The position numbers and the translations under genes were made by a program. The notes under the pieces are model-generated. The model saw nothing but the letters and a program-made list of their open reading frames with translations, was not told the origin of the DNA and ran no database searches. A stretch of DNA of 24,000 bases from Oceanococcaceae bacterium (GTDB lineage: Bacteria > Pseudomonadota > Gammaproteobacteria > Nevskiales > Oceanococcaceae). The stretch covers positions 53,611 to 77,610 of the forward strand of contig JBFIER010000011.1 in NCBI GenBank assembly GCA_041603255.1, given 5' to 3'. Shown here in pieces: positions 362 through 20,134 of the stretch; the first letter of the stretch is position 1, and the number at the start of each line of letters is the position of its first letter.

Positions 362-2731
362 TCAGCCGTGCACCGTAGCGTACTCCGTTGGCGTCCCTAC
401 CGCGCGGGGTTGCAAAAATGCCGGCCGGACGAGTGCGATCAGCAAAGGCAGCACCACCAGGGCAGAAACCATGTTGATGGCCATGATGGCCATGATCAGC
501 AGGCCCATGTCGGCGACAAATTTCAGACCCGACAGCAGATACAACGGGAGAATCGCGATGGTCATGATCGACGCCGTGAATGCGATGGCCTGGCCGCTGG
601 TGGTGAGTGACTCACGCAGTGCTTGTACCCATTGCCCCGGACGCAGCGCCAGCTCTTCCTGCACCCGCGACACCAGATAAATGCCGTAGTCGATGCCCAC
701 ACCCAGGCCGATGGCCGCGACGATCATCGAGTTGACGTCCAGGCCGACCCCCAGCAGATGCATGCAGGCAATCATGCTCAGGTGGGCCAGGTTGACCGGA
801 GCCAGCAGCAACAGCCCGGCGATGGGCGAGCGGAAGGCGAACGAGGCCAGCAGGAAAATCGCCACGTTCAACAAGCCCACCACGATGTGGTGGTAACGCG
901 CGATGATGCGATTGATGGCTTCCTGGATGGCGATGGTGCCCGTGCCCAGGCGCACCCGGAAGGCGTCGTGTTCAACCCCGACCTCGTCCACCGCAGCACC
1001 GGCCGCCGCCAGCACCGCATCGACGGTTTCCTGCGTGTTGTCCGCATACCAGAGCGACACGGTCCCGTGCTGCATCGTGTCCGACACCACGTGGCTGTAC
1101 GCTGTGGAACTGGCCCCCATCATCGCGCCGACAGCGGCGGCCGTGAGGGCGCGCTCGCGCGGGTCCAGCGGTAACCAGCGGGGGTCGCCGCCATTGAACA
1201 GCCGGTTCACGTCCGAGAGGTAGTCGGCAAACGAAAGCGTGGCCCGCGGTGGCATGGCGCTGTTTTCCATCGCGCTCTGCAGCTGCTGCATGGTCTGCAC
1301 CGCATCCACCGTGGTGGTGGTCCACTGATCGCTGTCCGGGTCGCGTGCTTCGAGCACGATTTCCAGCGTGTTGGTGCCCGGAAAATCCCGGTTGATGGCG
1401 CGCACCGCGGTGTTGAATTCCGAGTCCTGCCAGAGCAGGTTGCTGCCCGGCACCGGGTTGCCGATACGGATCTGAGCGGAGGTCCACCAGGCGGCCGCCG
1501 TAATCAGCAGCATGACCACCGCCAGCGGGTAACGCCGCGGCCCGCTGACCAGGTTGGCCAGCCCGGTCAGGAAAGGCTTGAGCGCGTGGATCCGTTCGCC
1601 GTTGGCGTCGCGGCTGGGATCCGGCAATACCGCGAGCAGCGGCGCCATCATCAGCACCCCGGTCGGGATCAGCCAGAGCGCCCAGAAGCCGCAGAAAATC
1701 GCATGGTTCACCATGGCCGGTATCGGCGCGGCGACGACCACGATAATGCCGAGCACGTCGGTGATGATCGACAGCATCGAGGGCTTCATCATCGCCTTCA
1801 GCGTGGCGCGGGCAGCCTCCGTGCGGTTGGGTAGCACATGTCGGTATTCCTGGAAACGGCTGGTGAATTGCACGCCGTGGGAAAACGAGCGGGCGATCAG
1901 CAGCAGCGGTACCACCAGCAGCAGCGGTTCGATGGCGATCCGCAGGTGCCCCACAAAGCCGAAGGCCCAGACCGCCGCGGTGCCGGCGGTGATCACCGGT
2001 GTCAGCACGCCAACCAGGCTGCGCATGTTCAGCGACAGGGCGAGGATCAGTATCGTCAGGGTCAGCGTGAATATGCCGGCCATCTGCCATTCGTGGCGAT
2101 AGACCCAGCCGATCAGTGCCGGGCGTCCGGTGAGGTGGACTTCGTGGTGCTCGTCGCGGGCGTCCTCCACCAGCTGCTGCACATATTCAAAGGCCTCACC
2201 CCAGTCCACCTTGTGTTCGATGAAGGTGGCGGTGATGATCGTGGCGTCCTGCTGGGCCGAGATCAGAAAGGTGCGCACGTTGGGCGATTTTTCGACCCGT
2301 TGCCGGATTTCTTCGATATCGGCCGACGTGGTCGGCTTGGAGTCGTCCATCAGCGGGCGCATGTCCACCCCGTAGGGCGTGGCTTGTGAATAGCGCGCCT
2401 TCTCGGTGGCGATGGACATGATCTGCGCGTGATCCACGCCGGGCGCGAGATCGATGTCGCGGGTCAGCTGCCAGATCTTGCCCAGTGTTTCCGGGTTGTA
2501 GATGTCCCCGTCGACGCGTCGGACCATGACGATCATCGTCAACGGGTTGCCGAAGTTGGGGTGGTCCCGGTACACGTCCACCAGGGGGTCATCGGTGGGC
2601 AGCAGGTCGTTGAAGATCGTGCGCAGCTCCACATGCGGCAACCCTGCGGCGAAAAAGGCCGTGATCGCCGCAAATACAACCAGCGTCCAGCCCGGCCGCG
2701 CCAGCAGCCGGTCCGCTAACCAGTCTCCCAT
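362..2731 (-). CDS. RND-superfamily (MMPL/HAE3-like) inner-membrane transporter, paralog 1 (789 aa)
   Basis: Full-length ORF with two blocks of multiple hydrophobic helices, each preceded by a large soluble loop (RND/MMPL topology). It aligns along its length with the 834-aa ORF at 12848-15352. Examples: FGNPLTMIVMV / FGNPLSVVVMI, ATEKARYSQATPYGVDMRP / ATEKARYAEATPYGVDMRP, GVGIDYGIYLVSR / GVGIDYGIYLLSR. It starts 4 nt after the DUF1329 stop. Confidence 0.85.
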   Translation of the reverse strand: MGDWLADRLLARPGWTLVVFAAITAFFAAGLPHVELRTIFNDLLPTDDPLVDVYRDHPNFGNPLTMIVMVRRVDGDIYNPETLGKIWQLTRDIDLAPGVDHAQIMSIATEKARYSQATPYGVDMRPLMDDSKPTTSADIEEIRQRVEKSPNVRTFLISAQQDATIITATFIEHKVDWGEAFEYVQQLVEDARDEHHEVHLTGRPALIGWVYRHEWQMAGIFTLTLTILILALSLNMRSLVGVLTPVITAGTAAVWAFGFVGHLRIAIEPLLLVVPLLLIARSFSHGVQFTSRFQEYRHVLPNRTEAARATLKAMMKPSMLSIITDVLGIIVVVAAPIPAMVNHAIFCGFWALWLIPTGVLMMAPLLAVLPDPSRDANGERIHALKPFLTGLANLVSGPRRYPLAVVMLLITAAAWWTSAQIRIGNPVPGSNLLWQDSEFNTAVRAINRDFPGTNTLEIVLEARDPDSDQWTTTTVDAVQTMQQLQSAMENSAMPPRATLSFADYLSDVNRLFNGGDPRWLPLDPRERALTAAAVGAMMGASSTAYSHVVSDTMQHGTVSLWYADNTQETVDAVLAAAGAAVDEVGVEHDAFRVRLGTGTIAIQEAINRIIARYHHIVVGLLNVAIFLLASFAFRSPIAGLLLLAPVNLAHLSMIACMHLLGVGLDVNSMIVAAIGLGVGIDYGIYLVSRVQEELALRPGQWVQALRESLTTSGQAIAFTASIMTIAILPLYLLSGLKFVADMGLLIMAIMAINMVSALVVLPLLIALVRPAFLQPRAVGTPTEYATVHG

Positions 2732-2735
2732 CGAC

Positions 2736-4130
2736 TTAGACGCGCCCGAGCCGCTGCAGCGCTTGCTGGGTCAGATAACGCTCGTACATATCCGGGTCGT
2801 TCGGGCCGCTGAAGTGTTCACCTTCCAGTTCGCGTACCTGCTCCATGCGGGTGACCTTGCCGGTCTGGATATCCGAAGCGATGACCTGCGTCCAGCTCCA
2901 GTACGGGTGTTTGCCATCCATGACCGTCTTGTCACCGGCTTCGTACAGCGAATACGCACCGTCAAAGGAGCGATAGGGTTCGCCGCGGCGGTCGTAGGTG
3001 ACCATGCCGATCAGCGTCTGATTGCGGGCATCAAACCACAACCGCTTCTTGGAAACCGGAGCGCGCGGAAAGCCGGTGGGCTCGCATTCGATGACGATGG
3101 CTTCGGGCACCAGTTCGACTACGGTGTCCCAGAAGCTGTCGTCTTTCTCGCCACCGTGGGTGTTGTGTTCCCAGTTGTCGTGTTCGGCGTGGAAGTTGCC
3201 GGACAGCCCCGCCAGGAACGGCCCGCGTCCCACGATCTTGAAATTCCCCCAGGTGTTGAGCGGATCGCCGGCACCCCAGGCATCCGACAGATACAGCGTC
3301 GTCTTCGGCAACAGGGGCTCGAAACGCTGGCTGGTGGGGAACTGGCGGATGCGGCGGAATTCGGGAACGTAGCCGTACAGCAGCGGGAAGGTGTTCTGAT
3401 CGTAGTCCCAGATGTTCAGGAACGACGTGCCCCGAAAGTTGTACGGCTCCAGGAAGAACACCGATTGAAAGCGCAGCTTGTCCTTGTGTTCCTCCCAGTA
3501 GGGTTTGGGGTCCATGGAGACACGCGCAACGGTGTTCAGCTCGGCCCAGCCACCGGTGTATTCGAAGCTCACGGAACCGTCCGCTTCGATGTTGGAAATC
3601 TTGACCGCGTAGAAAGACGCGTCGTGTCGGCCCCAGCTCAGAACCTGGGCGGCATACAGTTCGATCGCCTTTTGCGGGTCGGGGAAGGGATTGCCGCCGA
3701 TCCACGGCTGACCGTCCAGCGTCACCACATTGCCGCTGTCATCGAACTTGGCCTGGCCCGCGTTGCGCAGTGTCGCTTCCACGTACTCCCACGGCGACAG
3801 GCGGTAGGGGTCGGTGGTGGTCGGGGCGATTTTGAGCTTGCGGCCCTGATTCAGGATCTGCTCATAGCGAATGGGCTCGAGCAGATCTTTGACATGCTCC
3901 ACGTTGGCTGCGGTGATCTCATCACCGGTGCTGATCTTGCCCTTGGTGTAGCCCTCGATGGACAGCAGCTCGTCCGGATAAGCCGACGAGATGTCGCCTT
4001 TGTCCTTGATGGCGGCCCACAACGGGCTGATCACCCCCGTGGCCAGCACACCCAGGCCGGCATCCCGTAAGAATTTGCGGCGGCTGTAGTTCGAATCGTA
4101 TCGGCGAATATGCATTGTGTTTGCTGGCAT
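2736..4130 (-). CDS. DUF1329-family (LolA-like fold) periplasmic protein, paralog 1 (464 aa)
   Basis: Full-length ORF, roughly half identical by eye to the ORF at 15379-16767. Examples: YTKGKISTGDEI / YTKGKISTGDII, FRRIRQFPTSQRFEPL / FRRVRQFPTNQRFEPL, and both C-termini end QQALQRLG. The N-terminus carries SRRKFL plus a hydrophobic stretch. An alternative start is the ATG at 4115 (MHIRRYDSNY, matching the paralog's MNIRKYDFNY). Confidence 0.8.
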   Translation of the reverse strand: MPANTMHIRRYDSNYSRRKFLRDAGLGVLATGVISPLWAAIKDKGDISSAYPDELLSIEGYTKGKISTGDEITAANVEHVKDLLEPIRYEQILNQGRKLKIAPTTTDPYRLSPWEYVEATLRNAGQAKFDDSGNVVTLDGQPWIGGNPFPDPQKAIELYAAQVLSWGRHDASFYAVKISNIEADGSVSFEYTGGWAELNTVARVSMDPKPYWEEHKDKLRFQSVFFLEPYNFRGTSFLNIWDYDQNTFPLLYGYVPEFRRIRQFPTSQRFEPLLPKTTLYLSDAWGAGDPLNTWGNFKIVGRGPFLAGLSGNFHAEHDNWEHNTHGGEKDDSFWDTVVELVPEAIVIECEPTGFPRAPVSKKRLWFDARNQTLIGMVTYDRRGEPYRSFDGAYSLYEAGDKTVMDGKHPYWSWTQVIASDIQTGKVTRMEQVRELEGEHFSGPNDPDMYERYLTQQALQRLGRV

Positions 4131-5447: not shown

Positions 5448-6191
5448 ATGAGCAAAATGACAAAAAAAACGCGCCCGCGAACCAGCCAGACCGAGCGGCC
5501 GGCGCCGTACAAAATGAAGCAGGTCGAGGAGATGACCGGTGTGTCGCGGGAGACCGTTCGGTTCTACATCAGCGAAGGCCTGTTGCCCCCGCCGGTGAAG
5601 TCCGCCCGCAACATGGCCTGGTACTCGGACCGCCATGTCGAATTGCTGCGTCTGATCTCGCGTTTGCAGAACGAACAGTTTTTGCCGCTGCGCGCCATTC
5701 GTTCGCTGGTGCACGGCACCGAAGACATCAGTTTTACTCCCCAGCAGGAGGCGGTGCTCGATGAAATTCGCCAGGAACTGAGCGGGGTCGACGTGCTGCA
5801 CCATGCGGCGAATGAGGAATCCATCGGTGATTGCCCGGAGGGTTTCAGTGGCTGCGAGTGCGAGGAGTTGCGTCAGTTGGGTGAACTGTCGGGGGAGAAC
5901 GACAGCGCGCTGGAAAATGACCTGCGCCGGATCTGGGCGCGTTTGCGGCAGAACGGTTTGACCGAGGAACGGGGTTTCAGTCCGGCCAACCTCGAGTTTC
6001 TGTCCGAACTGGCCAAACTCGCCGTGCAGGAGGAACTGCGGCTGTTTGGCGAAAAGATCGTCCAGATGTCCGAGGGCGAAGCCAAGCGTTTGTCCCATGA
6101 AGTCATCCCCGCGTTGAACGATGTATTCAGTCTCCTCCACAAGCAGCGCCTGACGTTGGCCATCAAAAATCTGCTTGAAGAGCGCAAGTAG
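5448..6191 (+). CDS. MerR-family transcriptional regulator with a long C-terminal domain containing a C-x6-C-x-C cluster
   Basis: MerR-type winged HTH: YKMKQVEEMTGVSRETVRFYISEGLLPPPVKSARNMAWYSDRHVELLRLISRLQNEQFLPLRAIRSLV. Cys129/Cys136/Cys138 (GDCPEGFSGCECEE, nt 5832-5861). The start is uncertain: ATG 5448, 5457 or 5514, and none has a strong Shine-Dalgarno. Confidence 0.8.
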   Translation: MSKMTKKTRPRTSQTERPAPYKMKQVEEMTGVSRETVRFYISEGLLPPPVKSARNMAWYSDRHVELLRLISRLQNEQFLPLRAIRSLVHGTEDISFTPQQEAVLDEIRQELSGVDVLHHAANEESIGDCPEGFSGCECEELRQLGELSGENDSALENDLRRIWARLRQNGLTEERGFSPANLEFLSELAKLAVQEELRLFGEKIVQMSEGEAKRLSHEVIPALNDVFSLLHKQRLTLAIKNLLEERK

Positions 6192-6234: not shown

Positions 6235-6267
6235 TTGACACAATTTGCAACATCATGCCAGCATAGT
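6235..6267 (+). promoter_or_regulatory. Candidate sigma70-type promoter upstream of the monooxygenase operon (perfect -35, over-long spacer)
   Basis: TTGACA at 6235-6240. The best -10-like hexamers are CAGCAT (18-nt spacer) and CATAGT (6262-6267, 21-nt spacer, 4/6 match to TATAAT). No experimental support; motif reading only. Confidence 0.25.
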
Positions 6268-6304
6268 TTCGCGCCCATTACGGGCCGTTGCTCGAGGAGA
6301 TCAC

Positions 6305-7114
6305 ATGAGTAAGCAAATTGAGATGGGTGCCGGCGCTGTCGACACTCCGCGTGCACCCTGGCGTGCCATCTTTCTGGCGTTGGCCGGGATTGCCGTCGTT
6401 TTCGGCTTGTATCGCGTTTATCAGCATCAAACCGCCTTTACCTTCGGCCTGGACTATTTCAGCGATGACTTCCAGAAGTACTGGATGACCGTGCTGTACG
6501 TCGAGCTGACGGTCATTCCGTTGCTGGGCGCTGCGATCGTCGGTTATCTGTGGAAGACCCGTGACCGTCATCTGGACCAGCTCAAGCCGGTGGATGAACT
6601 GGGTCGTTACATGAAACTGGTGGGCATGCTGCTGCTGTTCGTAACGGTGTTCTACCTGACCGGTTCGATCTACGCCGAATCCGATGCCGCCTGGCACCAG
6701 GTGACCGTGCGTGATACCGATTTCACCCCCACCCATATCGGCTTGTTCTACTTCGCGGTTCCGACCCTGATCGTGCTGGGTGTGAGCAGCTTCATGTACG
6801 CACGAACCCGCTTGCCGCAGTTTGCCGAGCGGGTCTCCCTGCCGTTTGCCATCGCGGTGGCCGGCCCGATCATGATCATGCCGAACCTCGGTTTCAACGA
6901 ATGGGGCCACACGTTTTTCTACGCTGAAGAGCTGTTTGCCGCACCGATTCACTGGGGCTTCGTGCTGCTGGGCTGGGCGGTGTTCGCTGCCGCCGGGCTG
7001 CTGGTGCAGGTGCTGACCCGCATCATCGCGCTGACCAAGCAAATGAACGATGACGCCGCTGCCGCCGTGCAGCCGGTGTTGAGGCAGGATCAGGCGGTCG
7101 CCAAGGCCGCCTGA
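6305..7114 (+). CDS. pmoC: Copper membrane monooxygenase subunit C (PmoC/AmoC family)
   Basis: Hallmark motifs are SDAAWHQVTVRDTDFTPTH and GFNEWGHTFFYAEELFAAPIHWGFVLLGW. These conserve the D-x3-H-x12-H (D127/H131/H144) and N-x3-H-x13-H (N198/H202/H216) ligand sets described for the PmoC CuC and CuD sites. The start is moved to ATG 6305 (MSKQIEMG), preceded by a GAGGAG Shine-Dalgarno. The track's TTG at 6245 lacks one. Confidence 0.9.
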   Translation: MSKQIEMGAGAVDTPRAPWRAIFLALAGIAVVFGLYRVYQHQTAFTFGLDYFSDDFQKYWMTVLYVELTVIPLLGAAIVGYLWKTRDRHLDQLKPVDELGRYMKLVGMLLLFVTVFYLTGSIYAESDAAWHQVTVRDTDFTPTHIGLFYFAVPTLIVLGVSSFMYARTRLPQFAERVSLPFAIAVAGPIMIMPNLGFNEWGHTFFYAEELFAAPIHWGFVLLGWAVFAAAGLLVQVLTRIIALTKQMNDDAAAAVQPVLRQDQAVAKAA

Positions 7115-7125
7115 GGGGAAATCTC

Positions 7126-7162
7126 CAAGAAGCCGCCTTGACCAGGCGGCTTCTTGCTTTTG
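7126..7162 (+). terminator. Strong stem-loop with a short T-tract between subunit C and subunit A genes (attenuator, transcript-processing or stability element)
   Basis: CAAGAAGCCGCC (7126-7137), loop TTGACCA, GGCGGCTTCTTG (7145-7156): a perfect 12-bp stem, followed by CTTTTG. It lies 12 nt after the pmoC stop and 15 nt before the pmoA ATG. Confidence 0.5.
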
Positions 7163-7176
7163 AGTGAGGGAGACAT

Positions 7177-7923
7177 ATGGCTATCTCAGCATCTGCCACG
7201 CAGGCGGAGAAGGATGCGCATCGCATCAATGTTCAGTTCGATACGCTCATCATTCCATTGGTGGTGCTGGTGTTCGCTGCGGTTTTCAGCTTTCACTTCG
7301 CGCTGTTGGTGGGGGATTGGGACTACTGGATCGACTGGCGTGACCGCCGTTGGTGGCCGCTGGTTACGCCGTTGGCCATTACTGTCATCCCGGCGGTATT
7401 CGGCTACTTTCTCTGGGAGCGTTTGCGCCTCCCGCTGGCGGCGACGCTGTCTTTTCTCGCCTTGGGTGTGGCTGCCTGGATCAGCCGCTATCTGAACTTT
7501 CACCTGTTCGCGAACTTCCCGATGAACATGGTGTGGCCCTCCACCTTCATCGGCCTGGGCTTGATCATCGACTGCGTGCTGTTGCTGACACGGAGCTGGT
7601 TCTGGACCGGCCTGTTCGGCGCCTTCGCCGTCGGCTTGCTGATCTATCCGCTCAACTGGCCGCTGCTCGCGCCCTTTCAGGTGCCGGTGGAAATTCACGG
7701 CACGATGCTGACCGTGGCCGACCTGATGGGCTTTGAATACGTGCGTACCGCGATACCGGAATACGTGCGCATTATCGAGGAGTCCACGTTGCGAACCTTC
7801 GGGGAGGCGGTCACGCCATTGACAGCCGTCTTTGCCGGCTTCCTCAACATCATGAATTACTGGCTGTGGGTATGGGTCGGGTATCTCGCTGCGAAGGCCA
7901 TCTGGCTGCGTCGTATCGTCTGA
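7177..7923 (+). CDS. pmoA: Copper membrane monooxygenase subunit A (PmoA/AmoA family)
   Basis: GDWDYWIDWRDRRWWP, NFPMNMVWPSTF, ADLMGFEYVRTAIPEYVRIIEESTLRTFG. These closely parallel the PmoA/AmoA signatures GDWDFWVDWKDRRMWP and [36 protein letters not shown] Shine-Dalgarno upstream. Confidence 0.9.
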   Translation: MAISASATQAEKDAHRINVQFDTLIIPLVVLVFAAVFSFHFALLVGDWDYWIDWRDRRWWPLVTPLAITVIPAVFGYFLWERLRLPLAATLSFLALGVAAWISRYLNFHLFANFPMNMVWPSTFIGLGLIIDCVLLLTRSWFWTGLFGAFAVGLLIYPLNWPLLAPFQVPVEIHGTMLTVADLMGFEYVRTAIPEYVRIIEESTLRTFGEAVTPLTAVFAGFLNIMNYWLWVWVGYLAAKAIWLRRIV

Positions 7924-7941: not shown

Positions 7942-9168
7942 ATGCACAAATCAATTATGTGGGCGCTGGTTGCTCTGCTCGGGCTGTGGCTTCCGGTACA
8001 GGAGGCATGGGCGCACGGTGAGCGGGCGCAGATGCCGCAGCTCCGGATGCGCACGGTTCACTGGATGGATGTGGCCCTGTCACATTCCAAAATCGATGTG
8101 AACGATACGGTCAAGATCACCGGCAGCTTCATTCCGTCGGAGTACTGGCCGGATCACGTGGCCAGCATCGAGGATGTGGCCTTTCTCAATATCGGTGTCC
8201 CGGGGCCGTCTTTCGTGCGCCTGGATTCGCGGGTCAACGGGGTGCCGATGATCCGTTCCACCGGGTTCGAGAAAGGCAAGCTCTATCACTTCGAAGTGTT
8301 GCTCAAGGCCCGCAAGGCCGGCCGTGTGCACGTGCACCCGGTCATCAACGTCAAGGACACCGGCCCGATTATCGGCCCGGGCTTGTGGCTGGAAGTAAAC
8401 GAGGGCGCAGTGCCGTTCGAGAACACGGCCACCACCCTTTTGGGCAAGACCATCGACCTGGAAACCTACGGGTTTGCGAATGCGGCCATGTGGTCGGCAT
8501 TGTGGGGAGTGATCGGTCTGGCCTGGTTCGTGTACTGGCTGATGAAGTGTCCCATCGTCATTCCGCGGTTCAAACGCGCCGCCGAATTGGGCAAGGATGC
8601 GGATGAAATGATCACGCCAACGGATCGCAAGGTGGGCGCGGTGTTCCTGTCGCTGACCTTGCTGGTGATGCTCGGCGGGTACAAATACGCCAACGAGCGT
8701 TGGCCGATCACGACCCCGCTGCAAACCGGACGGATCAAAACACCGGGCCTGGAAGCCTACGACGGCACCGTCAAGGCGGATCTGGTCAGCGCGCGCTACC
8801 GCATTCCGGGCCGCAGTTTCCGGATGGAAATGGAAGTCACGAACAACGGCAGTTCGCCGCTGCGGGTGGGCGAATTTGCCGCCGGCGGTTTGCGCTTCAT
8901 CAATGCCGAGGTGCTTCAGGTGGCGCCCCGGGATGCGGATGACCTCATCGCTCCGGATGCGCTGCGTGTGGACGGCGGCGCGATTCCCGCCGGTGAAACC
9001 CGCACCATCGTGGTCTACGCTGATGACGCGATGTGGGAAACTCAGCGGATGACCACGATGATCGCGTCACCCGACGCCATCGTCGCTGGCATGCTGTTTT
9101 TCTTCGATGCTGAAGGCCGTCGCTACCCGCTGGAAATTGGCGGGACCATGATTCCGGAATTTGTCTGA
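7942..9168 (+). CDS. pmoB: Copper membrane monooxygenase subunit B (PmoB/AmoB family)
   Basis: A signal peptide ending AWA exposes an N-terminal His (H25, nt 8014-8016) in HGERAQMPQLRMRTVHWMD. The GRVHVHPVINV motif (H130/H132) completes the CuB-type His-brace ligand set. Two central TM helices (AAMWSALWGVIGLAWFVYWLM and VGAVFLSLTLLVMLGGY) separate two soluble domains, as in PmoB. Confidence 0.9.
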   Translation: MHKSIMWALVALLGLWLPVQEAWAHGERAQMPQLRMRTVHWMDVALSHSKIDVNDTVKITGSFIPSEYWPDHVASIEDVAFLNIGVPGPSFVRLDSRVNGVPMIRSTGFEKGKLYHFEVLLKARKAGRVHVHPVINVKDTGPIIGPGLWLEVNEGAVPFENTATTLLGKTIDLETYGFANAAMWSALWGVIGLAWFVYWLMKCPIVIPRFKRAAELGKDADEMITPTDRKVGAVFLSLTLLVMLGGYKYANERWPITTPLQTGRIKTPGLEAYDGTVKADLVSARYRIPGRSFRMEMEVTNNGSSPLRVGEFAAGGLRFINAEVLQVAPRDADDLIAPDALRVDGGAIPAGETRTIVVYADDAMWETQRMTTMIASPDAIVAGMLFFFDAEGRRYPLEIGGTMIPEFV

Positions 9169-9764
9169 TGAAGTTGTTGTCTGCACTGCTTCTGCTGTTT
9201 CTCGCCGTGGGCGTGGCCACCGAAGTCTCCGCTCACGGTGGGGTCTCGGTGGAAGACGATGCCTGTGTCATGCGCATTGGTCCGTATCGGGCGCATTTCA
9301 CGGGCTACCAACCCGAGCTGCGGGCAACCCAGGAATTCTGCGAAGACATTCCGGAAACGGCCTCGGCCATCATCGTGCTGGACTTCATCGATGGCGAGCT
9401 GCGCGATCAGGAAATGGCCTTCTACCTGTTGCGCGATGACAAGGGCATTGGCAAAACTGCGACCTTCAAGGATCTCGGGTCGATGGACGCGGTGCGTTCA
9501 GACTGCATCCTGTGCGTGGAGCCCAAGAAGTATCCTCGTGGCACAATCACGCTGGACTACCCTTTCACCGAAGGAGGCTGGTACATCGGCGTGCTGGAGG
9601 CGCGAAATCCGGAAACGGGCGAGACCATCCATTCGGTGTTTCCCTTCCAGGTTGGCGTGCGTCACTACTGGGGTTTTGTCATCGCAGGCCTGATCGTGGT
9701 GGCGCTCTCGGTGTTGCTCTACCGCGTTACCGGAAGAAACCTTGCGAGTAAAAACACGGCTTGA
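9168..9764 (+). CDS. Membrane-anchored periplasmic protein of unknown function in the PmoD/AmoD syntenic position (candidate copper protein)
   Basis: The ATG overlaps the pmoB stop (TGATG). A signal peptide ending VSA exposes His23 (HGGVSVEDDAC). There are four Cys, including C113-x2-C116 (SDCILCVEP, nt 9504-9515). A single C-terminal TM helix (HYWGFVIAGLIVVALSVLLYRV) follows. The architecture (signal peptide, about 140-aa periplasmic domain, one C-terminal TM) and the position between xmoB and copC match PmoD/AmoD/AmoE. I cannot confirm homology by eye. Confidence 0.45.
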   Translation: MKLLSALLLLFLAVGVATEVSAHGGVSVEDDACVMRIGPYRAHFTGYQPELRATQEFCEDIPETASAIIVLDFIDGELRDQEMAFYLLRDDKGIGKTATFKDLGSMDAVRSDCILCVEPKKYPRGTITLDYPFTEGGWYIGVLEARNPETGETIHSVFPFQVGVRHYWGFVIAGLIVVALSVLLYRVTGRNLASKNTA

Positions 9765-10156
9765 ATGACATGCGAGTACCCACCCGCTGGCACCATATTC
9801 TCACGACACTTGCGCTGACCCTGATCTCCGGGGCCGTTTGCGCACATGCCGCGCTGGTTCGCTCCGTTCCCGGCACGCGTGCCGTACTGCAGGGTTCGCC
9901 AACGCAAATCGAGCTGTGGTTCAACGAGGCGGTCGAGGAGTCGTTTTCGACGATCACGCTGGTGGCCCCGGGCGATGTCGAGGTGCAGCTGGGAAAACCC
10001 CATGTGGATTCCAGTGATCCCTACCGTCTGGCCGTGGATCTGCCCGCGCTGAGTCCGGGGCGCTATACCGTTCGCTATCGCGTGCTGTCCAAAGATGGGC
10101 ACCTGGTGGAATACGGATACCAGTTCGTGTTGGAGTCTGCGCCCGAACGCCCGTGA
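9761..10156 (+). CDS. copC: CopC-family periplasmic copper-binding protein (Cu(II)-site-only type)
   Basis: A signal peptide ending VCA exposes HAALVRSVPG (the N-terminal His of the CopC Cu(II) site). VRYRVLSKDGHLVEYGYQF is the CopC C-terminal signature (DGH). The mature protein has no Met, so the Met-rich Cu(I) site is absent. The start is either TTG 9761, overlapping the upstream stop, or ATG 9770. Confidence 0.85.
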   Translation: MNDMRVPTRWHHILTTLALTLISGAVCAHAALVRSVPGTRAVLQGSPTQIELWFNEAVEESFSTITLVAPGDVEVQLGKPHVDSSDPYRLAVDLPALSPGRYTVRYRVLSKDGHLVEYGYQFVLESAPERP

Positions 10157-12159
10157 TCGAATCTCTCGGCGTTGCAGGGCGCATGGTGTTCCTGCTGGGC
10201 GCACTGGGAGCAGTGGGCAGCGCCGGTTTCCTGCTTTTAGCTCCCGCGGCATCCGCACCGGCTTCTGCGGTGAGCGCCTGGCGCCTGATGTGGTTCTGGC
10301 GGTTGGGGTTTTTCCCGTTGCTGATCGGGCTGGGCCTGGCGCTGCAATTGCTGGCGCAGGCACTGAACCTCATGGGGCCGGAACTCGCCAAGGCCTTGCA
10401 TCCCGAAGTACTCGAGCCGCTGCTGCGACGAACCAATTTCGGTTGGGTCTGGAGCGCCCGGCTCGCTGCGATGTTCCTGCTGGTCTTGTTCTGGGCGGGC
10501 ACGCTGGGCATGAAGCGCGGGGATCGCCGGTACAGCGCCGCTCCGGTACTGGTGCTGGCAGCGCTGGCCGCCATGATCGGCCCTTTTGCCGGGCATAGTT
10601 CCGGCGCCGAATCACCCCCTTTGATGATGAGCCTGAATGCGCTGCACATCCTCGCGGCGGGGCTGTGGGCGGGTGCGCTGCCGTGCTGGGTAAGCTGGGC
10701 ACGCCTGAATCGGGTGCAGGCTGCCGCGCCCAATGCCATCGATACGGTGCGGCGATTTTCAACCCTTGCTGCCGGGTGCGTGGTGATCCTGCTGCTCAGC
10801 GGCGTGTGGCTTGCGGATGAGTTCGTTGAACACCTCGGTGATTTGCTCGGGACCCGTTATGGCCTGCTGATCGTCGTCAAGGTTGGGTTTTTTGCTGCGG
10901 CGCTGCTGTTGGCCAATCGCATACGTCACCGGCTGCTGGAAATGCCGAAAGGGGGCGGTGCGGGCCACTCGGGCTTTTTCGCCGGTGTCGTTATGTCGGC
11001 GCGGGGTGAGCTATTGGCGGTGCTGCTGGTGGTCATCGCTGCGGGTGCGTTGGCGCAGACTACGCCGGCGATTCACGATCAGCCGGTCTGGTTCCTGCCG
11101 TTTCGGGTATCCCCCGAAGCCGCCTGGGATGCCTGGCCGGAAGCCTTGTACGGTGGCCTTTATGGCCTGCTGGCTTTGCTGGCTCTGGGGCTCTGGGGGG
11201 GCGGCCGGGTCTGGAAGAAACCGCTGCCGACGCCACTTGCGTGGGGATTGCTGCCGACCGTACTGGTGGGGGGCAGCGGGGCGTTGTACTGGTTCTCCGT
11301 TCCCGCTTACCCGGATACCTATCGGCGTTCGGATGTGCCGTATCTGGCAGCGTCCGTGGTCCAGGGACAGTTGCTGTTCGAGCAGCACTGCGTCTCCTGC
11401 CATGGCAGCGGTGGGTTGGGAGATGGCAAGCAGGCCGCCTATCTGCCGGTGCCACCGGCCGACCTGAGCGAACCCCATACATCGCTGCATACGGCCGGCG
11501 ACATGTACTGGTGGTTCACGCATGGTATTCCCCAGAGCGGTATGCCCGGTTTCGCCGGCAAGCTGAGTGAGCAGGATCGCTGGGATCTGGTCAATTTCCT
11601 GCGGGCCTTCTCGCGTGGGTTCGAGGCCCGTGTATTGCGCGATGTGATCGTGCCGCGCGACCCCTGGCTGGGGGCGCCCAATTTCTACTTCGACAGCCCG
11701 GCCGGGTTTTCCGAGCTGAAGGCGTTGCGGGAGACCCACACCGCACTGCTGGTGTTCGCGGATTATGCGAATCCGCAGAGCCAGGAGCGCCTGGCGGCAC
11801 TGGATCGTGCGCAGCCTCGACTGCAGCAGGCCGGTTTGCGGATTTTGGTGGTGCCGATCAACCCGGAGCTGCCCGAGCCGGCGTTGCCCGCGCTGCAAAT
11901 TGTGCGCAACGAGGCGCGGCCGATCTGGGCGACCTACAGCCTGTTGTCACGCAGCCTGGCTGATCGGGGTGACGATGACGCGCTGGGGGTGCAGCGTACG
12001 CATGTGGAATTTCTGGTCGACCGGTTTGGTTATCTGCGGGCGCGATGGATACCCGGAGAGTCCAGCGGTTGGACAGATATCGAGCGTTTGCTGACTCAGG
12101 TAAATGCCTTGATGACGGAACCGGAAATCGAGCCGCCGCCTGACGACCACGTGCATTAA
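10153..12159 (+). CDS. copD: CopD-family membrane protein fused to a mono-heme c-type cytochrome and a Cys-less thioredoxin/redoxin-like C-terminal domain (668 aa)
   Basis: The GTG start overlaps the copC stop (GTGA). The N-terminal ~300 aa are polytopic with CopD-like FAGHSSGAE and LHILAAGLWAGALP. More TM helices extend to about aa 395. CVSCHGSGGLGDG (C413-x2-C416-H417, nt 11389-11403) plus a downstream GMPGF give a class I cytochrome c. From about aa 500-650, TALLVFADYANPQSQERL...GLRILVVPINPE...HVEFLVDRFGYLRARW looks like an AhpC/TSA/redoxin fold, but ANPQS (nt 11767-11781) sits where CxxC is expected. Confidence 0.8.
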   Translation: MIESLGVAGRMVFLLGALGAVGSAGFLLLAPAASAPASAVSAWRLMWFWRLGFFPLLIGLGLALQLLAQALNLMGPELAKALHPEVLEPLLRRTNFGWVWSARLAAMFLLVLFWAGTLGMKRGDRRYSAAPVLVLAALAAMIGPFAGHSSGAESPPLMMSLNALHILAAGLWAGALPCWVSWARLNRVQAAAPNAIDTVRRFSTLAAGCVVILLLSGVWLADEFVEHLGDLLGTRYGLLIVVKVGFFAAALLLANRIRHRLLEMPKGGGAGHSGFFAGVVMSARGELLAVLLVVIAAGALAQTTPAIHDQPVWFLPFRVSPEAAWDAWPEALYGGLYGLLALLALGLWGGGRVWKKPLPTPLAWGLLPTVLVGGSGALYWFSVPAYPDTYRRSDVPYLAASVVQGQLLFEQHCVSCHGSGGLGDGKQAAYLPVPPADLSEPHTSLHTAGDMYWWFTHGIPQSGMPGFAGKLSEQDRWDLVNFLRAFSRGFEARVLRDVIVPRDPWLGAPNFYFDSPAGFSELKALRETHTALLVFADYANPQSQERLAALDRAQPRLQQAGLRILVVPINPELPEPALPALQIVRNEARPIWATYSLLSRSLADRGDDDALGVQRTHVEFLVDRFGYLRARWIPGESSGWTDIERLLTQVNALMTEPEIEPPPDDHVH

Positions 12160-12184: not shown

Positions 12185-12679
12185 ATGTTCAATACCAAAC
12201 TTCCCCGGGTTTCGGCGCTGGCCGCCTGCATGACGCTGGCCGTGACGGCCTTCACCGCTATTGCCAATGACAAAAACGATGCCCACAGCATGCACGAGGG
12301 GCACATGATGCACGCTGGTGATGCGTCCATGAAAAAGAACGCCGGCAGTTATCCGGAATTGAAGATCCTGCTGCCGCAGGACGGCGCGACCGTCAGCTCG
12401 CAATTGGCCGTGGTGTTTTCAACGCCGGGACATATGGCGGATCTCACCATGGGCGCGCCGACACCGGGCGTCCACCTGCATATTGATACCCAGGATGTGT
12501 CGTTGATGCCGACGATGCAGCAGCTGGTCTCCCTGGGCGGCGGCAACTATCTGTTTCTGTTTGATCTGCCGGTCAAGCCGGGCGCGCACAAGATCAACGT
12601 GTACTGGTCCGATGCGCAGCACAAGACCATTCAGGAGTCGGTGCGCTCCATCACCGTCACGGTGCCAGCAAAGCGGTGA
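12185..12679 (+). CDS. Periplasmic His/Met-rich protein with a DUF4399-like beta-sandwich domain (candidate copper-binding protein)
   Basis: GAGGA Shine-Dalgarno and a signal peptide ending AIA. A HSMHEGHMMHAGDASM tract (nt 12284-12331) resembles periplasmic Cu(I) Met/His motifs. The body (ELKILLPQDGATVSS..., GVHLHIDTQD..., GAHKINVYWSD...ITVTV) resembles my recollection of DUF4399 (GHHHLLID..., GxHxL...). Confidence 0.55.
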   Translation: MFNTKLPRVSALAACMTLAVTAFTAIANDKNDAHSMHEGHMMHAGDASMKKNAGSYPELKILLPQDGATVSSQLAVVFSTPGHMADLTMGAPTPGVHLHIDTQDVSLMPTMQQLVSLGGGNYLFLFDLPVKPGAHKINVYWSDAQHKTIQESVRSITVTVPAKR

Positions 12680-12847: not shown

Positions 12848-15352
12848 TTGAGCAGTACGCAATCAAATACCGGCGCGGGTCCAGGGCTGGACTCCATACG
12901 CTTCAAGGTTGCTGCATGGGTCATGCGGCAGCGAAAAGCCATGTTGGTGTTTTTCGCCCTGGTGACTTTGGGGTTTGCCGCGGGTCTGCCCGGCCTGACC
13001 ATCAAAACCATCTTTTCCGATCTGCTGCCGGCAGACGATCCCTTTGTTCAGGTCTATCAGGACCACCGCAACTTCGGTAATCCGTTGTCTGTGGTGGTCA
13101 TGATCAAGAACAAGAAAGGCGATATCTACAACCACGACACCTTGAGCAAGGTGTGGAACCTGACCCGGGACATCGACCTGGTTCCCGGCATCGACCACAA
13201 CACCTTGATCTCGATCGCGACGGAAAAAGCCCGCTACGCCGAGGCCACGCCTTATGGCGTGGACATGCGGCCGATCATGGAGGACAAGGTTCCGACCGAC
13301 CCCACCGAGATCGCGGATTTCCACCGCCGGGTTGAGCAAAGCCCGAACGTCCGGACCTTCTATGTGTCCGGCGACCAGACGGCAACGCTGATCACCGCAG
13401 CCTTCCTGGAAAACCTGCTGGATTACGGCGTGGTGTTCCAGGGTGTGCAGGACCTGGCCGAGAAGTATCGCGACAAGAACCACGAGATCTACGTGGTGGG
13501 GCAGCCGATTCTGACGGGTTGGGTGTACAAGCTGCAGAAGCAGACCTACATGATCTTCGCGATTACGCTGGGCGCGCTGGCCATCGCGTTGGCGCTGTAC
13601 ATGCGCAACATCGCCGGGACGCTCACGCCGATTATCTGTAGTTCGGTTGCCGCCATCTGGGGCTTCGGTCTGGTCGGCTGGATCAGCTCGCCGATTGAAC
13701 CGCTGCTGATGATCGTGCCGTTGCTGTTGATCGCGCGATCGTTCTCGCACTGCGTGCAGTTCTCCGAACGCTTCTACGAGATCTACTCCGAAATCGGTGA
13801 CAAGCGGAAGTCCGCAGAGATCACGATGGCCGCCATGATGGCGCCGTCGATTCTGGGTGTGATCACCGACGCGCTGGGGATTTTCTTCATCGCGCTGGCG
13901 CCGATCCCGGCCATGGAACGCTTCGCGCTGTTCTGCGGCTTCTGGGCGCTTTGCATCATCCCGACCGGCGTTTTCCTGATCTCCATTCTGCTGTCCTATC
14001 TACCGGATCCCGGCAACATCGAAGATCTGGTTTCGCACAATGACACCGGGTTCCACGCCTTCCAGAAGCGCGTGCTGCAGAAGGTCGCCGCGCTGTGCTA
14101 CGGCCGGCTCGCCAAGTACACCACCATCGCGACGCTGGTCGTGGCGGTGGGGGCGGTGTATCTGGCATCGCAGATCAAGATCGGCAACCCGGTCGAAGGC
14201 TCCAACCTGCTCTGGGAGGATTCGGACTTCAACACGGCGATCCGGGCGGTGAATGCCCACTTCCCGGGTGTGAACACGCTGGAGATCGTGCTCGAAGCCA
14301 AGGAGCGCGAGATCACCAACCGGATTGCCCGGACTCCGGATGCGGTTGCCGCATCGCTGCAGCTGCAGGCGCTGGTCGAGGCCGACCCGATCATGCCGCC
14401 CCGGGCCACTTTGTCCTTCAGTGACTACATGATGGAGGGCAACCGCTTGTTCTCCGGGGGTGACCCCAAGTGGTATCCGCTGGACCCGACGCGTTCATCG
14501 GTGGCTGCGGCCAGCAACGCGGTGACTTTCGGTACCGACCCGGTCAACTTCGCCCATATCACCGACTTCGAGTTCCAGAACTCCACGGTGTCGTTGTGGT
14601 ACGCGGACAACAAGCAGGAAACCGTGGACGCGGCGCTGGCCAGTGCGCGGCGTGCGGTCGAGATCGTGGGTGAAGACCACCCCACGTTCCGCATCCGTCT
14701 GGCGACCGGCAATATCGCTCTGCAGCAGGCCATGAACCTGGTGGTGCACCGCTATCACTGGCTGATTCTGGGCATGTTGAACTGTGCGATCTTCCTGATC
14801 TGCTGGTATGCGTACCGGTCCATGGTGGCGGCCATCATCGTGTTGATCCCGGTGAACCTGTCGAACTTCCTGCTGACGGCAACCATGCACGTCATGGGAA
14901 TTGGTCTGGACATCAACTCGGTCATGGTGGCGGTGCTGGGTGTGGGCGTGGGTATCGACTACGGGATCTACCTGCTCTCGCGTATTTGCGAGGAGTACAC
15001 CGCGAATGACCAAGACTGGACCTGTGCCATTCGGGAATCCCTGACCACCACCGGGAAGGCAATTCTGTTTACCGCAACCATCATGCTCATCGGCATCCTG
15101 CCGTGGTACCTGCTTTCCGACCTGAAGTTCATGGCGGATATGGGGCTGCTGCTGGTGGCCATCATGCTGATCAACATGGTGTTGGCGCTGGTGGTGCTGC
15201 CACTGCTGATCTGGCTGATCAAACCGAAGTTTGCTGCTCGTGATGACCTGATGGTTGGTGAGAGCATCGACTTGTCCCAATTCAAGACTGCCAGTTCGAA
15301 TGAGGGTGACAAAGGTGGGATGCCACCTCTGGCCGCGCAATCACCCGCCTAA
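12848..15352 (+). CDS. RND-superfamily (MMPL/HAE3-like) inner-membrane transporter, paralog 2 (834 aa)
   Basis: Full-length ORF with TTG start and a GAGGGGA Shine-Dalgarno upstream. Same architecture as 362-2731 and colinear with it. It has an extra C-terminal hydrophilic tail. Confidence 0.85.
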   Translation: MSSTQSNTGAGPGLDSIRFKVAAWVMRQRKAMLVFFALVTLGFAAGLPGLTIKTIFSDLLPADDPFVQVYQDHRNFGNPLSVVVMIKNKKGDIYNHDTLSKVWNLTRDIDLVPGIDHNTLISIATEKARYAEATPYGVDMRPIMEDKVPTDPTEIADFHRRVEQSPNVRTFYVSGDQTATLITAAFLENLLDYGVVFQGVQDLAEKYRDKNHEIYVVGQPILTGWVYKLQKQTYMIFAITLGALAIALALYMRNIAGTLTPIICSSVAAIWGFGLVGWISSPIEPLLMIVPLLLIARSFSHCVQFSERFYEIYSEIGDKRKSAEITMAAMMAPSILGVITDALGIFFIALAPIPAMERFALFCGFWALCIIPTGVFLISILLSYLPDPGNIEDLVSHNDTGFHAFQKRVLQKVAALCYGRLAKYTTIATLVVAVGAVYLASQIKIGNPVEGSNLLWEDSDFNTAIRAVNAHFPGVNTLEIVLEAKEREITNRIARTPDAVAASLQLQALVEADPIMPPRATLSFSDYMMEGNRLFSGGDPKWYPLDPTRSSVAAASNAVTFGTDPVNFAHITDFEFQNSTVSLWYADNKQETVDAALASARRAVEIVGEDHPTFRIRLATGNIALQQAMNLVVHRYHWLILGMLNCAIFLICWYAYRSMVAAIIVLIPVNLSNFLLTATMHVMGIGLDINSVMVAVLGVGVGIDYGIYLLSRICEEYTANDQDWTCAIRESLTTTGKAILFTATIMLIGILPWYLLSDLKFMADMGLLLVAIMLINMVLALVVLPLLIWLIKPKFAARDDLMVGESIDLSQFKTASSNEGDKGGMPPLAAQSPA

Positions 15353-15378
15353 CGTATTACTCACGAGGAGACACAACC

Positions 15379-16767
15379 ATGAATATCCGTAAGTACGACT
15401 TCAATTACGGCCGTCGGAAACTGATGGAAAACACCGCACTCGGACTGGGTGCGGGGGTTTTGATGCCGCTGGCCGACGTGTTCGCGGCTGAAGGTGACAT
15501 CAGCAAGGCTTACCCGGAAGAGCATCTGTCGATTGAGATGTACACCAAGGGCAAGATCAGCACCGGTGACATCATCGATGCCAGCAATGTCGACCTGATC
15601 AAAGAACTGTTTGACCCCAGCATCTACGACCAGATCAAGAACCTCGGTCGCAAGATCAAGATTCGTAAGACCACCACCGATTTCTCGAAGATGTTCCCCA
15701 ACGACTTCTACGAGTTGACGCTGCGCAACGTCGGTAATGGCGTCAAGGCACAGTGGGATGCCAAGGGTAATGTTCGCTCTCCCGATGGCTCGCCCTGGGT
15801 GGGCGGCCTGCCGTTCCCTGACCCGAAAACCGGTGACGAAGTGCAGGCCAACCTGGCGATGAGCTGGGGGCGGGGCAACTACTGTCAGTACGCGGTCAAC
15901 GACAGCGTATTCAACAACGGTAAACAGGCCTACAGCTATGACCTGGTCTGGGCCGAGTTGCAGATGGCCGGGCGTCCGGACGGCAAGATCTTCATGGACC
16001 GGGATGATCTGGTTCGTTTGCAGACCGTGCTGTTCACCGCTACCCAGGACGTCGCGGGCAGCTCCTTCCTCTCGATTTGGTACTACGACCAGTCCAAGTT
16101 CCCGGATCTTTACGGTTACCTGCCGCAGTTCCGCCGGGTGCGTCAGTTCCCGACCAACCAGCGTTTCGAGCCGCTGATTCCGGGCGTGACCTGGTTCCTT
16201 TCCGACCCCTGGGGCGCCGGTGACCCGATGCGCACCTGGAGCGAGTACAAGATCGTCGAGCGCAAACCGATGCTGGGGCCGTTCAACACGAACTTCGTCG
16301 GCACCAATAACTGGAACACCACCACTCACGGCGGTGAAAGCGGCGAGCTGTTCTTCGATACCGAATATGAGCTGGCTCCGGAAGTCGTGACGCTGGAGTC
16401 GAAGCCGACGGGTTATCCGCGGGCGCCGGTCGGTCATCGCCACTGCTACGTCGATACGCGTATGTGTCTGGCCGGCTCGTCGATCCGCTATGACCGTCAG
16501 GGCAAGATGTGGGTTAATTTCGAGGCCGGTTACGGTCAGCAAATCGACCCGGTCAACAACATCGAGATCAAGGGTCCGGACGGCAAGAGCACGGCCTGGT
16601 CCTGGATGTACGTGCTGTCTTATGACCACCAGAACCAGCGCATGAGCCGTGCCCGTCACCTGGAAGAGTGTGCCGGCGGCTACCAAAGTCAGCTGGGCGG
16701 TGACGATGAACTCGCGTACGACACCTTCTTCACCCAGCAGGCCCTGCAGCGCCTGGGGCAGGTTTAA
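15379..16767 (+). CDS. DUF1329-family (LolA-like fold) periplasmic protein, paralog 2 (462 aa)
   Basis: GAGGAG Shine-Dalgarno. The N-terminus has GRRKLM followed by a hydrophobic stretch ending FAAEG. Colinear with 2736-4130. Confidence 0.8.
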   Translation: MNIRKYDFNYGRRKLMENTALGLGAGVLMPLADVFAAEGDISKAYPEEHLSIEMYTKGKISTGDIIDASNVDLIKELFDPSIYDQIKNLGRKIKIRKTTTDFSKMFPNDFYELTLRNVGNGVKAQWDAKGNVRSPDGSPWVGGLPFPDPKTGDEVQANLAMSWGRGNYCQYAVNDSVFNNGKQAYSYDLVWAELQMAGRPDGKIFMDRDDLVRLQTVLFTATQDVAGSSFLSIWYYDQSKFPDLYGYLPQFRRVRQFPTNQRFEPLIPGVTWFLSDPWGAGDPMRTWSEYKIVERKPMLGPFNTNFVGTNNWNTTTHGGESGELFFDTEYELAPEVVTLESKPTGYPRAPVGHRHCYVDTRMCLAGSSIRYDRQGKMWVNFEAGYGQQIDPVNNIEIKGPDGKSTAWSWMYVLSYDHQNQRMSRARHLEECAGGYQSQLGGDDELAYDTFFTQQALQRLGQV

Positions 16768-17798: not shown

Positions 17799-17842
17799 AC
17801 AATTCCGCGCATAGAGGCAGCGGTATACACAGGGAAGAGACA

Positions 17843-20024: not shown

Positions 20025-20071
20025 CTCACCCACGTCAATGCCTTACGGGCGGCGTGGGTGAGTATTTGCTT
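20025..20071 (+). terminator. Putative intrinsic terminator downstream of the DUF1302 gene
   Basis: CTCACCCACG (20025-20034) pairs with CGTGGGTGAG (20053-20062): a 10-bp stem with an 18-nt loop, followed by the T-rich TATTTGCTT. The loop is long, so confidence is moderate. Confidence 0.4.
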
Positions 20072-20134
20072 GTGGCGCGGCTCGCCGTCCCACGGGTGAA
20101 CTTTGAGTATCGGATTGATAGAGAGGAGAACCTC

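Follow-up and report, generated by a model that had tools for sequence, protein, structure and literature searches.

The 24,000-nucleotide stretch of DNA analysed here (the window) is from an Oceanococcaceae bacterium (GenBank assembly GCA_041603255.1, contig JBFIER010000011.1, positions 53,611 to 77,610 of the forward strand), and it contains genes for a copper membrane monooxygenase, XmoCAB, followed directly by an open reading frame at positions 9168–9764 (forward strand; 198 amino acids plus stop). From sequence and structural comparisons we assign the product of this reading frame to the PmoD/AmoD family of periplasmic copper proteins, and within it to the class with a Cx9HxnC motif rather than to the CuA-forming Cx7MxHxnC subclass. 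We think it probable that the protein is a copper handling or assembly factor dedicated to the monooxygenase and acting on mononuclear copper. This gives a name, PmoD-family protein of the Cx9HxnC class, to a 'hypothetical protein' for which neither Pfam nor NCBIfam has a model.

Three kinds of comparison (sequence with profile, profile with profile, and structural) indicate family membership. Searched against the sequences of the Protein Data Bank (PDB), a profile built from 62 homologues matched the soluble domain of PmoD from Methylocystis sp. Rockwell (the Rockwell PmoD; Met49242_1452, PDB 6CPD) with an E value of 1.1e-19 over residues 31–163, the next match having an E value of 1. Comparison by hhalign with 31 in-operon PmoDs of alpha-methanotrophs gave a probability of 99.85% and an E value of 1.4e-30 over 182 columns, in an alignment that spans the signal peptide through the transmembrane anchor. 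Foldseek against the PDB also placed 6CPD first (E values 6e-11 to 1e-10, TMt 0.83–0.85, 26% identity), and the mature-domain model compared with 6CPD_A gives TMq 0.76, TMt 0.85 and a root-mean-square deviation of 2.9 Å. Cys33, His43 and Cys58 of the window protein are equivalent in these alignments to PmoD Cys41, His51 and Cys65. The protein also shares with the PmoD/AmoD family a signal peptide (rule-based), two conserved cysteines, a C-terminal transmembrane helix, a length of 150–250 residues, sequence similarity, a cupredoxin-like fold (in the predicted model) and a location beside copper membrane monooxygenase genes. An initial annotation of this DNA, made from the letters alone, had called for profile searches and Foldseek, in both of which the 6CPD PmoD is the top match, and had offered a choice between a divergent PmoD-family member and a non-homologous protein that merely fills the PmoD slot. 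The first of these is borne out (6CPD at 1.1e-19, hhalign at 99.85%, TM 0.85). The second might have drawn support from the Pfam and NCBIfam scans of the protein, which returned only noise (ATP-synt_J, E 0.047; a P-loop ATPase, E 0.061), and from the database names of its close homologues, all of which are 'hypothetical protein', but all three kinds of comparison give PmoD over the full length, and we regard the stand-in as refuted.

The assignment to the family is not itself new. A Solimonas aquatica orthologue that is 57% identical (Ga0070002_104146, 165511–166107, coordinates that agree with the gene start derived in locus L004) is included in Supplementary Data 2 of Fisher 2018 (PMC6189053), where it is placed in the group 'other' with the operon 'cabdcd', the Cx9HxnC motif, and a histidine in the column 'H1'. 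The earlier description of the protein as uncharacterised is thus apt insofar as no Pfam or NCBIfam model covers it and its annotation reads hypothetical, but not insofar as an orthologue has been listed as a Cx9HxnC PmoD since 2018. We also considered as relatives the 'AmoD' and 'AmoE' of the 2025 cryo-electron microscopy (cryo-EM) structure of ammonia monooxygenase (AMO), and rejected them; the cryo-EM paper calls them different from the classical amoD and amoE products.

The gene is predicted to be the fourth of an xmoCAB-D-copC-copD operon. The xmoB stop codon (TGA, 9166–9168) and the start codon (ATG, 9168–9170) share an A, and the resulting TGATG at 9166–9170 on the forward strand can be read directly in the sequence, as the initial annotation had reported; this ATG is the most upstream start of the open reading frame, and homologues align from Met1. 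A sequence scan revealed no terminator-like site between xmoB, the PmoD-family gene and copC. Overlaps with xmoB of −1 or −4 nucleotides are found in 35 of 80 related loci and include nearly all of the Nevskiales and Burkholderiales among them; spacers of 10–135 nucleotides follow xmoB in the more distant marine lineages. Through this start/stop overlap the PmoD-family protein is predicted to be made in step with XmoB, by translational coupling in this lineage.

These 80 loci, from 80 species-level genomes, are the best among relatives found in 234 genomes by a scan of one genome per species, and they include Nevskiales, Polaromonas, Rhodoferax, Porticoccaceae and others. A word-indexed search recovered 504 homologues of about 195–205 residues, whose hosts are Nevskiales (Sinimarinibacterium, Nevskia, Panacagrimonas and Solimonas), Polaromonas, Hydrogenophaga and other Comamonadaceae, and searching 1.84 billion cluster representatives with a profile yielded 687 clusters at an E value of 1e-3 or below and 450 at 1e-10 or below; the taxonomic spread of the diverged representatives, ten of which were looked up and carry the name 'hypothetical protein' or none, is taken from Fisher's table. 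In every one of the 80 loci the gene comes immediately after xmoC-xmoA-xmoB, and copC-copD lies downstream of the gene in at least 24. We note that in a Porticoccaceae metagenome-assembled genome a multicopper oxidase takes the place of copCD after the PmoD homologue, and that in Rhodoferax this place is taken by a pyrroloquinoline quinone (PQQ) alcohol dehydrogenase that carries a cytochrome c domain (L033 6537–9153; L012 6628–8796). Because the downstream neighbour varies among copCD, multicopper oxidase and PQQ alcohol dehydrogenase, XmoCAB is the constant partner, and the PmoD-family gene is genetically locked to xmoCAB. The fourth gene is thus a constant member of copper monooxygenase operons far beyond the methanotrophs and ammonia oxidisers; pmoD and amoD are still called unique to methanotrophs and ammonia oxidisers in a 2026 review.

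The predicted architecture is that of a secreted, anchored protein. The N-terminus reads MKLLSALLLLFLAVGVATEVSA|HGGVSVEDDAC, with the predicted cleavage at the bar, and residues 1–22 (9168–9233, forward strand) form a Sec-type signal peptide, predicted by rule from Lys2, a hydrophobic core and the closing Val-Ser-Ala. We examined residue conservation in sequences aligned to the family hidden Markov model, using 118 close homologues and 135 full-length representatives of 50%-identity clusters. In all 118 close homologues residue −1 of the cleavage site is A, G, S or T and residue −3 is small or aliphatic (A, V, L, T, G, I or S), with a hydrophobic core and an N-terminal lysine or arginine (a basic n-region) ahead of the site. 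The conserved −1 and −3 residues, hydrophobic core and basic n-region together suggest that a signal peptidase I site has been conserved exactly before His23, so that the earlier proposal of a cleavage after VSA that leaves a mature N-terminal histidine agrees both with the rule-based prediction and with the conservation of the site (118 of 118).

The mature protein is predicted to contain a periplasmic PmoD-type beta-sandwich domain, residues 23–165 (9234–9662, forward strand), which AlphaFold models with a predicted local distance difference test (pLDDT) score of 90.2, compared with 87.2 for the full-length model. Residues 168–192 (9669–9743, forward strand) form a single C-terminal transmembrane anchor followed by a short basic cytoplasmic tail; the 19-residue hydropathy maximum is 2.33 for the window starting at residue 169 (169–187), AlphaFold places a helix at 168–192, and the two together uphold the single anchor seen at the outset. 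Trp168, Leu183 and Tyr185, in or near the anchor, are each at least 90% conserved. The protein is thus predicted to be exported by its Sec signal peptide and held by its C-terminal anchor with the beta-sandwich on the periplasmic side of the inner membrane.

Three residues of the domain define the copper motif class. Cys33 (9264–9266), which aligns with PmoD Cys41 of 6CPD, His43, at the end of the Cx9H motif with its Arg41-Ala42-His43 (9288–9296), and Cys58 (9339–9341), which aligns with PmoD Cys65, are all encoded on the forward strand, and the motif reads C33-VMRIGPYRA-H43 ... C58, with no methionine at −1 or −2 of His43. Both cysteines are present in all 118 close homologues and each in 134 of the 135 representatives, and Cys58 lies within HFTGYQPExRATQEFCEDIP, the most conserved segment of the protein; His43 is found in all 118 close homologues and in 111 of the 135 representatives. 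The equivalent Cys41 and Cys65 are the two invariant cysteines of the family and are disulfide-bonded in the 6CPD crystal (PMC6189053). Position 41 is the informative one. Where the CuA-type protein has its ligand Met49, the window protein has Arg41, and in all 118 close homologues this position is R, K, T, Q, L or S and never methionine, with positions 41–43 reading RAH, KAH or similar (A or S at position 42) and never Met-x-His. The CuA centre of the Rockwell PmoD needs Cys41, Met49 and His51 from two monomers, the substitution Met49Ala abolishes its formation, and among the classes of protein tested a CuA centre was formed only by those with Cx7MxHxnC (PMC6189053). Arg41 in place of Met49 therefore puts the window protein in the Cx9HxnC class, by its sequence, rather than in the CuA-forming subclass.

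A Methylocystis-like arrangement, in which Cys33 and His43 of a dimer build a mixed-valent CuA centre that passes electrons to the monooxygenase, has to be weighed against this class assignment. The window protein is homologous to 6CPD and shares its fold, Cys33 and His43 are the equivalents of the CuA ligands Cys41 and His51, and a cytochrome c domain fused to CopD two genes downstream would provide electron carriers nearby. However, the third ligand is an arginine here and one of six other residues than methionine throughout the close homologues, its loss in Met49Ala is sufficient to abolish CuA, and the Cx9HxnC representative that was tested took up 1.40 Cu per protein, present as two type-2 Cu(II) species and lacking CuA features (PMC6189053), such that we consider a CuA centre in this protein improbable. 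The suggestion in the initial annotation of a copper-delivery or redox partner of the enzyme therefore fares differently in its two parts: the role is one that has been proposed for PmoD in the literature (PMC6189053), but redox activity through CuA is unlikely given Arg41. All four of the PmoD classes tested bind copper (PMC6189053), and deletion of pmoD in Methylosinus trichosporium OB3b causes a defect in growth that depends on copper, according to the same paper and to a review (PMC13058606).

The Rockwell PmoD (PMC6189053) is otherwise a close parallel. Like the window protein it has a signal peptide, a beta-sandwich, two cysteines and a C-terminal transmembrane anchor, with a histidine ten residues past the first cysteine and a gene right after that for subunit B of a copper monooxygenase. 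It differs in having Met49 rather than Arg41, in a mature Glu-Gly-Gly rather than His-Gly-Gly, in four extra Met-rich residues before its first cysteine, and in its methanotroph host, as opposed to a Nevskiales-like hydrocarbon-type bacterium. Closer in class are MettrDRAFT_0370 and Solimonas Ga0070002_104146, which share the Cx9HxnC motif and the histidine at 'H1', although both lack the CxxC pair of the window protein described below. The Solimonas gene lies in the same xmoCAB-D-copC-copD order, whereas M. trichosporium MettrDRAFT_0370 is outside the pmo operon. AmoD (orf5, Cx8MHxnC) and AmoE (orf4, Cx7MxHxnC) of the ammonia oxidisers belong to the same family, lie after subunit B, and have a histidine at H1 in NE0941/NE2060, NE0942/NE2061 and Noc_2500; they depart from the window protein in having a methionine adjoining or two residues before the second histidine and in serving an enzyme that oxidises ammonia.

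The predicted mature N-terminus is as strongly conserved as the core motif. His23-Gly24-Gly25 (9234–9242, forward strand; His23 is encoded by CAC at 9234–9236) is H-G-G in all 118 close homologues; His23 is retained in 125 of the 135 cluster representatives and Gly24 in 133, and the conservation of these two residues is thus on a par with that of the two 'invariant' cysteines and above that of His43. The seven representatives P0157, P0160, P0171, P0203, P0263, P0188 and P0149 have Gly-Gly-Gly or Ala-Gly-Gly/Ala in place of His-Gly-Gly, and this minority subgroup without a first-residue histidine retains His43 and both cysteines. The CuA-type PmoDs of alpha-methanotrophs present a different picture: of 117 full-length sequences, 106 have Glu, Asp, Ala, Gln or Gly at position 23 and 11 have a gap, while none has a histidine, and the cleavage region of the Rockwell PmoD, for example, reads ...SRA|EGGAGPEAMSMGNMC. 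His23, followed by an invariant glycine, would most likely bind copper with both its free amine and its imidazole, either in a histidine brace or in a mono-histidine brace like that of YcnI.

The window protein is flanked by two others with the same feature, such that three consecutive secreted proteins (7942–10156, forward strand) have a predicted mature N-terminal histidine, the cleavage sites being AWA|HGE in XmoB, VSA|HGG in the PmoD homologue and VCA|HAA in CopC. The statement in the initial annotation that PmoB and CopC next door share the exposed histidine is in accord with the two flanking predictions (WA|HGE and CA|HAA).

The N-terminal histidine has been recorded before. Fisher's 'H1' column holds a histidine for Nitrosomonas europaea AmoD and AmoE, Noc_2500, MCA2130, MettrDRAFT_0370 and the Solimonas orthologue, and an alanine for the OB3b in-operon PmoD; the residue is tabulated and never discussed in the main text (PMC6189053). 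All of the constructs in that study carry a vector-derived Ser-Met at the N-terminus; from the primers, the Cx9HxnC construct (that of MettrDRAFT_0370) starts (Ser)-Met-His-Asp-Gly-Val and the Cx8MxnC construct (Ser)-Met-His-Gly-Arg-Leu, while the crystallised Rockwell construct starts at Gly38, eleven residues further in (PMC6189053). With Ser-Met ahead of the histidine in every published construct the amine is blocked, and a site that requires the free amine of His1 could not have formed. An N-terminal site would thus have been missed so far because the crystallised PmoD has a glutamate in this place, because its construct was truncated, and because Ser-Met is present on all of the constructs. 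A literature search linking PmoD with 'histidine brace' found nothing, and a broader one turned up only the 2026 AMO review, in which the term is used for other sites. There is a precedent, in that the mono-histidine brace of YcnI was found by the same group through the same logic of signal cleavage exposing a conserved histidine (PMC8424229). We put forward, tentatively and as something that may or may not hold across the family, that most PmoD/AmoD proteins, including AmoD and AmoE of the ammonia oxidisers, bind Cu(II) at an N-terminal histidine site of the brace or mono-brace type. If this is true, published experiments would have overlooked the copper site that operates in vivo in most of the family, and with it the part that these proteins play beside copper monooxygenases.

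YcnI (DUF1775) of Bacillus subtilis provides an analogy in how such a site might work. It too has a conserved residue-1 histidine after cleavage, an extracytoplasmic beta-sandwich, a C-terminal transmembrane helix and a gene next to CopC/CopD, and its single Cu(II) is coordinated by the N-terminal amine, the histidine imidazole and a glutamate, in a mono-histidine brace (PMC8424229). In contrast to the PmoD-family protein it has no link to a monooxygenase, and no sequence or Foldseek relation between the two is detectable; CopC, YcnI and PCuAC are all absent from the top 50 Foldseek matches. The mature N-terminal histidine is likewise shared with the brace proteins CopC, PmoB (CuB site) and the AA10 lytic polysaccharide monooxygenases (LPMOs), and in PmoB (HGE) it is also followed by a glycine. 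By prediction, then, the window protein has the residue-1 histidine of the brace families, but it has no fold or homology match to one of them, and the likeness is best taken as a functional analogy rather than membership. Behind PmoD, the AA10 LPMOs rank next among the Foldseek matches (TM 0.37–0.46, E values 6e-4 to 4e-2); we rejected homology to them, the TM values being below 0.5 and near those of generic immunoglobulin-like matches, and treat the resemblance as a lead and not as evidence. For the mature domain, the best neighbour that is neither a PmoD nor an LPMO is an uncharacterised Leptospira interrogans protein (PDB 6oe6_B; TMt 0.59, E value 2e-3).

Taken together, these comparisons suggest how a mononuclear copper handling or assembly factor of the Cx9HxnC class could operate. 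After Sec export the C-terminal transmembrane helix would tether the beta-sandwich domain to the periplasmic side of the inner membrane. Cys33 and Cys58 would most likely form a structural disulfide as in 6CPD, and His23 would serve as a copper ligand. Because the methionine ligand is replaced by an arginine, the metal would be bound as mononuclear type-2 Cu(II) instead of in a dimeric CuA centre. The protein would then handle copper to load, repair or help to assemble the XmoB and XmoC sites, and would probably pass it between these sites and CopC/CopD as part of a relay.

Several observations weigh against this proposal or restrict the form that it can take. The choice among delivery, assembly and electron transfer is one that we infer, and PmoD-family proteins have never been seen in purified or in-membrane structures of particulate methane monooxygenase (pMMO) or AMO (review PMC13058606). 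In the AlphaFold model, with strands beta0 at 25–29, beta1 at 32–37 and beta2 at 40–47, His23 and His43 appear to be on the same exposed face, 12–17 Å apart when the HGG tail is extended, and a brace made of both histidines would need the tail to fold back over this gap; the first ten mature residues are modelled with lower confidence (mean pLDDT 73). The two histidines also vary independently, with both present in 104 of the 135 representatives, His23 only in 21, His43 only in 7 and neither in 3. Such independent loss argues against an obligatory brace of two histidines, and a mono-histidine site fits better. A site of the histidine-brace type is nevertheless plausible.

Some of the same data could be read as those of a mainly structural or assembly subunit, in which the transmembrane helix and a conserved loop would stabilise the complex by docking on XmoC or XmoB, metal binding being incidental. 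The strict coupling to xmoB would suit such a subunit, the conservation of Trp168, Leu183 and Tyr185 speaks for specific contacts (a tyrosine is also found at the aligned place in alpha-PmoDs), and the most conserved stretch, YQPE..QEFCEDIP, is acidic and unlike a classical copper motif. Against this reading, PmoD-family proteins are not observed in the pMMO and AMO structures solved by cryo-EM or crystallography, and the extra helix in these structures has been assigned to other small proteins. Copper binding by all four of the tested PmoD classes also runs counter to an incidental role for the metal, and docking alone hardly explains an invariant first-residue histidine; we therefore think a mainly structural function unlikely, and favour copper handling or assembly.

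A feature of the protein that was stressed at first is its pair of cysteines at Cys113-Ile-Leu-Cys116 (9504–9515, forward strand; Cys113 at 9504–9506 and Cys116 at 9513–9515). The four cysteines reported in the initial annotation, including C113-x2-C116, are all present, but its emphasis on the CxxC pair is not sustained, as only 6 of 120 close homologues, all at least 72% identical, have both Cys113 and Cys116. The carriers are the window protein, its five nearest cluster representatives and P0001; the pair is missing from all of 150 diverged representatives and all of 120 alpha-methanotroph PmoDs, and position 113 is usually a threonine. It is conceivable that the CxxC is the business end of the protein, a thiol-disulfide oxidoreductase or Cu(I) site that acts on the enzyme or on CopC, and the presence of the pair in the window protein and in these relatives would be in keeping with this. 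However, the pair is missing from 114 of the 120 close homologues and from all 270 of the more distant members examined, searches of Pfam, NCBIfam and Foldseek gave no thioredoxin-family or thioredoxin-fold match, and both the gene position and the remaining sequence are conserved without it. We regard such a function as highly improbable, and the near-absence of the pair among homologues rules it out as the functional core of the family. From its distribution C113xxC116 appears to be a recent lineage-specific addition outside the core mechanism, and the two cysteines perhaps form a second disulfide.

Among the surrounding genes, a MerR regulator (5448–6191) lies ahead of xmoC (6245–7114), xmoA (7177–7923) and xmoB (7942–9168), all three on the forward strand, which match the Pfam models AmoC, AMO and Monooxygenase_B respectively with E values of 1e-79 to 1e-123. 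Downstream of the PmoD-family gene, and also on the forward strand, copC (9770–10156; Pfam CopC) starts 5 nucleotides past its stop codon, a copD-cytochrome c fusion gene (10153–12159; Pfam CopD and Cytochrom_C) overlaps the copC stop, and a small secreted His/Met-rich protein of 164 residues is encoded at 12185–12679. A 98%-identical PmoD-family protein in the same gene order is present on a contig of assembly GCA_025491055.1.

The strongest terminator-like hairpin of the operon region lies in the 62-nucleotide xmoC-xmoA spacer, at 7126–7156 on the forward strand, with a 13-bp stem that includes eight G-C pairs, a 5-nucleotide loop and then CTTTTG; it may serve in mRNA processing or in attenuation. 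The cytochrome c domain of the CopD fusion is at residues 403–484, and the approximately 180 residues that follow (490–668) have no Pfam match and no match in a PDB sequence search; the fusion is kept downstream of copC in related Nevskiales loci. The 12185–12679 protein contains the His/Met-rich N-terminal stretch HSMHEGHMMHAG, and gave only a sub-threshold DUF4399 match (E value 0.002) and no match in a PDB sequence search. In 17 related loci a protein of this type is encoded after copD, and in four Polaromonas loci at another place downstream; this conservation suggests another periplasmic copper protein.

Further out, gene sets with an MMPL/RND transporter and DUF1329 lie on both sides of the operon, at 362–4130 (reverse strand) and 12848–20011 (forward strand), and the right-hand set also carries a BNR/YCF48-like protein and DUF1302. 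Past it are an acyl-CoA synthetase (20054–21697) and a MalT/LuxR regulator (21714–23990, reverse strand), and the same type of MMPL gene is found after the operon in a Porticoccaceae metagenome-assembled genome. The flanking MMPL, DUF1329 and acyl-CoA synthetase genes, together with the pairing with a PQQ alcohol dehydrogenase in relatives, suggest that the monooxygenase oxidises hydrocarbons rather than methane or ammonia.

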